Translations under genes and position numbers: made by a program
The notes under the pieces: generated by a model
Seen by the model: only the letters and a program-made list of their open reading frames with translations
What the model was told of the DNA's origin: nothing
Database searches by the model: none
Part shown: in pieces, positions 17,778 through 18,504 of the stretch
How positions within the stretch are numbered: position 1 is the first letter of the stretch
How the letters are laid out: each line of letters begins with the position of its first letter
NCBI RefSeq assembly: GCF_003334305.1
Contig: NZ_QOWS01000032.1
Length of the DNA stretch: 35,919 bases
Source of the DNA: Escherichia coli
GTDB lineage: Bacteria > Pseudomonadota > Gammaproteobacteria > Enterobacterales > Enterobacteriaceae
Direction: 5' to 3' (one strand)

Positions 17778-17928
17778 ATTTGATCCTCGTTATTATCAAC
17801 CGCGGGCCTACCTTACCTGATTGCGCATTCACAACGCTTTCAGAAAAGTCCATAAAGCCGCGATGAACCTCAGTTAAGAAAATTATGGTCTACACTGAAA
17901 ATTACATCGAATTCTAATGGGGGATCAT

Positions 17929-18257
17929 ATGTTTAACCGACCGAACCGCAACGACGTTGATGATGGCGTGCAGGATATCCAGAATGATGTCAATCAATTA
18001 GCTGACAGCCTCGAATCTGTATTAAAGTCCTGGGCAGCGACGCCAAAGGGGAAGCTGAAGCCGCACGCAGTAAAGCTCAGGCATTGCTGAAAGAAACCAG
18101 GGCGCGAATGCATGGTCGTACTCGCGTCCAGCAAGCCGCACGCGATGCCGTTGGCTGCGCGGATTCTTTTGTTCGTGAAAGACCCTGGTGTAGCGTGGGT
18201 ACAGCAGCTGCGGTAGGTATTTTTATCGGCGCACTGTTAAGCATGCGCAAATCGTAG
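17929..18257 (+). pseudogene. ygaM: ElaB/YqjD-family (DUF883) ribosome- and membrane-associated protein, interrupted by an apparent 1-nt frameshift in this sequence
   Basis: ATG 17929 with GGGGGA Shine-Dalgarno. N-terminal frame reads MFNRPNRNDVDDGVQDIQNDVNQLADSLESVLKSW, then runs into TGA at 18088..18090. A second frame reads GSDAKGEAEAARSKAQALLKETRARMHGRTRVQQAARDAVGCADSFVRERPWCSVGTAAAVGIFIGALLSMRKS* to TAG at 18255..18257. The frames meet at the GGG run at 18032..18034. Confidence 0.7.
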
Positions 18258-18287
18258 TGCAAAAATGATAATAAATACGCGTCTTTG

Positions 18288-18319
18288 ACCCCGAAGCCTG
18301 TCTTCGGGGTTTCTTTTTG
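18288..18319 (+). terminator. Rho-independent terminator downstream of ygaM
   Basis: Stem ACCCCGAAG / CTTCGGGGT (18288..18296 and 18302..18310) with a short loop, followed by TTCTTTTTG. Confidence 0.65.
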
Positions 18320-18384
18320 CCTGGTGAATCACAAAAATTCCCCTACCCCGTCACGCTCATATCCAGGGTAATTTCGACCACTAT

Positions 18385-18400: not shown

Positions 18401-18504
18401 GGTTGAATCTTTTTTCAACTACATCTAGTATCTCTGTATCAACAGAGAAACAACCCGACGCGTATCATCGCGCCGTATCTTCATTTTAAACGGAAATACG
18501 AATC

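Follow-up and report, generated by a model that had tools for sequence, protein, structure and literature searches.

In Escherichia coli K-12, YgaM was shown to be a C-tail-anchored inner-membrane protein that tethers 50S ribosomal subunits (10.1101/2024.08.16.608256). For its family, a C-terminal membrane anchor, a Pro-Trp motif preceding it and an Arg-Lys motif at the C-terminus were described, and upon over-production of YgaM the 50S protein uL2 was enriched in inner-membrane vesicles (10.1101/2024.08.16.608256). In the related protein YqjD, removal of either the N-terminus or the transmembrane segment abolished ribosome inactivation, with the transmembrane segment driving the dimerisation that is needed (10.1101/2024.08.16.608256). 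Native YgaM is of low abundance, and deletion of ygaM in K-12 led to slightly slower growth and an earlier loss of viability in stationary phase (10.1101/2024.08.16.608256). Acting indirectly, CsrA represses ygaM expression in exponential phase and activates it in stationary phase (PMC10746276).

Here, an interrupted ygaM gene was analysed within a stretch of 35,919 nucleotides of E. coli DNA (the window, meaning the whole stretch that was analysed). The window corresponds to positions 3618587-3654505 of the chromosome of strain A7 (NZ_CP028767.1; source: orangutan faeces, USA), the first 25 kb being 100% identical. According to the annotation, the gene order ygaC - ygaM - nrdHIEF is kept in A7 as well as in six other genomes.

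The two reading frames of ygaM

The features of the locus are given below with their positions in the window.

17929..18257, plus strand: ygaM pseudogene (ElaB/YqjD/YgaM, DUF883 family), 329 nt compared with the normal 330; RefSeq AOY58_RS17255, pseudo, with the note 'frameshifted'
18032..18034, plus strand: GGG run, which is GGGG in other E. coli; site of the probable 1-bp deletion in codons 35/36 (TGG GGC), from the alignment with strain 504838 and five near-identical relatives
18029..18033, plus strand: CCTGG, a Dcm motif (CCWGG) overlapping the G-run and the Trp-35 codon, read from the sequence
17929..18090, plus strand: predicted truncated product of 35 native and 18 out-of-frame residues followed by TGA, from translation
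18109..18257, plus strand: orphaned C-terminal coding part, M61 to S109 and stop, which carries the Pro-Trp motif and the transmembrane anchor, from translation
17917..17923, plus strand: Shine-Dalgarno-like GGGGGAT 5' of ATG 17929, unchanged and the same in relatives
18287..18321, plus strand: intrinsic terminator-like hairpin and T-run 3' of ygaM, from a terminator scan and the same in relatives

Translation from ATG 17929 yields MFNRPNRNDVDDGVQDIQNDVNQLADSLESVLKSW, followed by 18 out-of-frame residues (AATPKGKLKPHAVKLRHC), before the TGA at 18088-18090 closes the frame after 53 codons. The neighbouring frame, which reads GSDAKGEAEAARSKAQALLKETRARMHGRTRVQQAARDAVGCADSFVRERPWCSVGTAAAVGIFIGALLSMRKS through to the stop at 18255-18257, contains the remainder of the protein (...GSDAKGEAEAARSKAQALLKETRARMHGRT...PWCSVGTAAAVGIFIGALLSMRKS), and the two frames meet at TCC TGG GCA, with the GGG at 18032-18034. 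The motifs RERPWCSVGTAAAVGIFIGALLSMRKS, representing the C-terminal anchor, Pro-Trp and Arg-Lys, are still encoded but out of frame with the N-terminus, and the product of the normal start ends at residue 53. In a base-by-base alignment, the absence of one G from the GGGG run was the sole difference from the intact allele. With one G inserted, the ORF measured 330 nt and matched ygaM of strain 41 at every nucleotide; the encoded protein is WP_001295174.1 (109 aa).

The two frames were scored with the YgaM equivalog model NF007523, which has a curated cut-off of 157 bits. The repaired protein reached 227.3 bits over positions 1-108 of 108, whereas the 53-aa fragment (68.8 bits, positions 1-43) and the 49-aa C-terminal fragment (96.2 bits, positions 61-108) both remained below the cut-off. 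The scores of the repaired protein compared with those of the fragments demonstrate that the two-frame pattern is not due to chance. Since the full-length match was obtained only after repair, ygaM of the window is a member of the family by descent and not an intact member. Both halves align to one orthologue in two different frames and a single indel explains the break, as is characteristic of a frameshift pseudogene. The 49-aa ORF, containing the DUF883_C domain (PF19029), was called in a draft assembly of the A7 clone, while the N-terminal fragment was called in neither A7 nor the draft. In an exact look-up, a 57-aa form (MGDH start) and a TTG-started 57-aa C-terminal fragment were absent from the protein collection.

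The initial annotation of this DNA had described an N-terminal frame with a ribosome-binding signal that runs into TGA at 18088..18090 after 53 codons, and had placed the rest of an ElaB/YqjD-family protein, including the anchor, one frame over. Translation, the GGGGGAT upstream of the start and the fragment scores bear this out, and the extra G at 18032..18034, predicted to restore an ORF of about 109 aa, did so exactly. The alignment to reference ygaM that it had proposed likewise returned one missing G and nothing else.

Occurrence in E. coli genomes and in the A7 clone

The frameshift in A7 is already public, as RefSeq marks the gene as a 'frameshifted' pseudogene. A 481-nt query around ygaM had matches in 5422 of 5426 complete E. 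coli genomes, and a match of 100% over 481 nt was obtained only for strain A7 (NZ_CP028767.1); the other matches listed all span 482 nt. Similarly, a 61-mer centred on the GGG was found exactly in one of the 5426 complete genomes, and in the other 3611 with the same flanks the fourth G is present or further changes occur. Against the second common ygaM background, none of 1656 complete genomes had the deletion. Among the approximately 5,270 complete E. coli genomes that were assessable, the deletion is present in A7 alone. Reference alleles with the same GGG and another intact reading frame, which the initial annotation had named as an observation that would speak against a broken gene, did not occur in complete genomes on either common background, and the near-identical relatives A28, 41, FCI51, H15 and WL164 have GGGG and an intact ygaM in five of five cases.

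To find further assemblies of the A7 clone, the exact LhgO protein carrying the change at position 8272 was used as a clone marker. It was detected in five places, namely in A7, in GCA_002476345.1, in GCA_012531235.1 and in the Logan assemblies SRR3951469 and SRR3951615. The contigs of the two Logan assemblies contain the LhgO variant and end about 6 kb before ygaM. Contig NWPZ01000033.1 of GCA_002476345.1 comprises 35,924 nt, its base 1 equals position 1 of the window, and its end falls on an IS3 copy and a tRNA-Arg repeat, a kind of break seen in short-read contigs. This contig and DABAWS010000041.1 of GCA_012531235.1 are 100% identical to the window over 19,035 and 18,957 bases, respectively, with GGG in both; records with the DAB prefix are presumably third-party reassemblies of SRA reads. 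CP028767.1, NWPZ01000033.1 and DABAWS010000041.1 agree in all clone-private SNPs and in the GGG, as three assemblies that may derive from the same DNA preparation or even from the same reads. The strain-specific proteins of A7 have the consecutive accessions WP_097343981-987, plus WP_097344039, and the consecutive numbers suggest a joint first registration from one earlier genome of the same clone. No mention of CP028767, NWPZ01, the SRR numbers or the assembly accessions was found in the literature.

Comparison of the window with the five relatives over 35.9 kb revealed six clone-private sites, consisting of five substitutions (at 3687, 4811, 8272, 10780 and 18449) and one indel, the ygaM deletion. 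Five private SNPs in 36 kb would indicate that the A7 clone is more than trivially diverged from its nearest sequenced relatives. Four of the five substitutions are G:C to A:T transitions. The C to T change at 8272 alters LhgO (lhgO, 7767-9035), giving WP_097344039.1 compared with WP_000271964.1 in all five relatives. The clone-private G to A change at 18449 is located 56 nt upstream of the nrdH start codon, where it falls in the spacer of the only sigma-70-like promoter match (18439-18468) in the ygaM-nrdH intergenic region.

It had also been proposed that ygaM is the only disrupted gene. This holds true among the genes that are intact in the relatives, but not for the window as a whole, in which a ypjC-like gene (DUF5507/YpjCB; 1422-2794) and a ygaQ-like alpha-amylase gene (4181-6434) are also annotated as frameshifted, in A7 as well as in every close relative examined. 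Since their frameshifts are common to all relatives, these two genes appear to be old, ancestral pseudogenes of the lineage and not clone-specific.

Genuine deletion or sequencing error

The change from GGGG to GGG is very probably a genuine, clone-private 1-bp deletion that makes ygaM a pseudogene in the A7 lineage, and its origin probably lies in the strain itself, not in a laboratory stock. The balance is shifted towards a real mutation because the three assemblies are concordant, no other private indel is present and an excess of frameshifts was not observed. Furthermore, natural ygaM null alleles (W35, TGG to TAG) exist independently, and therefore the gene can be lost in nature. A real mutation and a homopolymer error had both been offered as explanations from the outset; both were reasonable, and the assembly evidence favours the former.

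If the missing G were an artefact, the strain would have GGGG and an intact ygaM, and an under-call of the homopolymer in the consensus would have been passed to the other assemblies if data were shared. We consider this unlikely, although the run behaves as such an explanation requires in other assemblies. The G-run overlaps a Dcm motif, and Dcm context is known to disturb some long-read basecallers. An exact look-up detected the 53-aa product on one NCBI contig only, which belongs to GCA_046575725.1, an error-ridden assembly of a different strain that has the identical deletion and, within 6.2 kb, a further six 1-bp indels, of which two are at GATC. In this assembly stpA, alaE, ygaC and nrdE are also broken. 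Two of its 1-bp deletions (window-equivalent 17139 and 17243) drop the C of GATC (Dam) sites, and its ygaM deletion lies in the G-run directly adjoining the CCTGG (Dcm) site. The indel pattern of this assembly looks like that expected from methylation-sensitive long-read basecalling errors.

Other assemblies that bear extra G-run indels nearby had also lost or gained a G at this run or at the G4 run that follows. When ten long contigs on which only the 49-aa C-terminal fragment had been called were inspected, three had a G deleted from this run, one had a G inserted and four had a G deleted from the next G4 run, and most of the ten had further G-run indels within 150 nt. CP026823.1 carries a clean single deletion at the same ygaM run. 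In error-prone assemblies of other strains, indels recur at the ygaM G-run, a site liable to errors on some platforms. In A28, which was sequenced in the same project as A7, two possible 1-bp homopolymer deletions relative to H15 were found in 10.5 kb of accessory DNA. They are located at 2409 and 8678 of the compared A28 segment, an accessory island upstream of the window, and through one of them a hypothetical gene is broken up into two CDS.

The A7 clone nevertheless differs from such assemblies, as those of the artefact type have about one indel per kb and several broken neighbours, whereas the A7 clone has a single indel. Against an artefact it also speaks that the three assemblies of the clone are concordant at every base, one of them showing breaks of the short-read type and one being separately accessioned. 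Homopolymers of 4 or more bases occur 543 times in the window (5 or more, 175 times; 6 or more, 47 times), and in the comparison with the five relatives the 542 besides the ygaM run all lacked a clone-private change in length, C7 at 6558 and A8 at 34375 included. In addition, no CDS annotated as frameshifted was found in two further 50-kb stretches of the A7 chromosome (100 kb). In an assembly that is prone to homopolymer errors, the longer runs should suffer first; with C7 and A8 both correct, a wrong consensus at a tract as short as four G would be surprising, and this weighs against an artefact.

The same two runs vary among the relatives. Between ygaQ and glaH, FCI51 and H15 have C6 in place of the C7 at 6558, and the A8 run at 34375 is shortened to seven A in FCI51, where it frameshifts yqaA. 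Probably these variants reflect homopolymer errors in the assemblies of FCI51 and H15 and not in the window.

Expected loss of function and other ygaM null alleles

Replication slippage in the short G run would be the simplest origin of a genuine deletion. From the normal start, a product of 53 residues would be synthesized that has neither the transmembrane anchor at the C-terminus nor the Pro-Trp hinge. As this separates the ribosome-binding N-terminus from its membrane anchor, a loss of YgaM function is expected. YgaM is one of three stationary-phase ribosome-hibernation factors that are tethered to the membrane and partly redundant. The orphaned C-terminal part could be expressed through internal initiation only, and a start at ATG 18109 could at best yield the anchor without the ribosome-binding end. 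By analogy with YqjD, the phenotype of a null allele of one of the three paralogues would be expected to be mild at most. Polarity on nrdHIEF is unlikely, since ygaM has kept its terminator and the nrdHIEF cluster, annotated separately, lies 248 nt downstream.

Loss of ygaM is not unique to A7, whose allele is one of several natural null alleles. Two of ten sampled contigs had no indel, but a change of codon 35 from TGG to TAG. This W35* allele (codon 35 = window 18031-18033) has exact matches in 15 of 5426 complete genomes, which stem from many laboratories and include WCHEC005784, AR_0137 and 5CRE51, and it is annotated by RefSeq as an 'internal stop' pseudogene. The affected base (window 18032) pairs with the inner cytosine of CCAGG, which is the classical deamination position of Dcm-methylated cytosine, so that a hotspot for deamination of 5-methylcytosine may lie just one base away from the G-run deletion.

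The 49-aa remnant ORF is present on at least 846 contigs of all contig-size classes, and these contigs are a mixture of real null alleles and artefacts. Based on the two independent nulls in the same two codons (W35* and the G-run deletion) and on the at least 846 contigs, it could be proposed that inactivation has hit ygaM repeatedly among commensal and clinical E. coli, and that favoured loss in some niches or a function of the anchor ORF, rather than neutral decay at a hotspot, accounts for this. We regard this proposal as very unlikely to be correct. If many of the remnant ORFs were indeed real, loss of a ribosome-hibernation paralogue would possibly be selected, or the anchor ORF would be functional.

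There is next to no likelihood that the broken gene still works, whether by ribosomal frameshifting at the G-run, by a 53-aa soluble peptide and a re-initiated 49-aa anchor acting together, or as a phase-variation switch. An ATG at 18109, in the same frame as the C-terminal part, is present 18 nt past the TGA, with a weak AGGG as the sole upstream ribosome-binding signal, the 49-aa ORF is often predicted by gene callers, and YqjD without its transmembrane segment retains some ribosome binding (10.1101/2024.08.16.608256). However, in YqjD the N-terminus and the transmembrane-driven dimerisation are needed on the same molecule for ribosome inactivation, and the N-terminal fragment keeps merely 35 native residues. 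Rescue of the frame would need a -1 slip of tRNA-Trp from UGG onto CUG, and a programmed frameshift was rejected, as no slippery X XXY YYZ heptamer is present at UCC UGG GCA and the orthologues are encoded in a single frame. Phase variation was rejected as well, since a tract of four G (three here) is far below known contingency tracts and is constant in the five closest relatives as well as, with a single exception, across about 5,270 complete genomes.

Taking the G-run deletion as genuine, the A7 allele is most likely an ordinary strain-private knockout of a known gene that is flagged in public annotation, and it is of little import beyond correct annotation. Users of A7 in stationary-phase, persistence or ribosome-hibernation work are most likely working with a natural ygaM null in which elaB and yqjD are presumably intact. 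The locus further provides a worked example of how sister assemblies and the indel profile of relatives separate a real homopolymer frameshift from an assembly artefact, and CCTGGGG in ygaM is a site where real mutations and basecalling errors both recur.

Compared with the gene for intact E. coli YgaM (WP_001295174.1, K-12 b2672), the A7 allele lies in the same ygaC/nrdHIEF locus and has the same promoter-proximal region, ribosome-binding site and terminator, whereas its frame is broken at codon 35/36, which severs the N-terminal 35 residues from the hinge and the anchor. GCA_046575725.1, the example of a long-read artefact, has the same change from GGGG to GGG and the same predicted 53-aa product. 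The W35* allele truncates the protein at virtually the same residue as the A7 deletion (34 compared with 35 native residues), leaves the same 49-aa C-terminal ORF and is also a pseudogene in RefSeq; it is a substitution in a multi-genome lineage, whereas the A7 allele is an indel in one clone.
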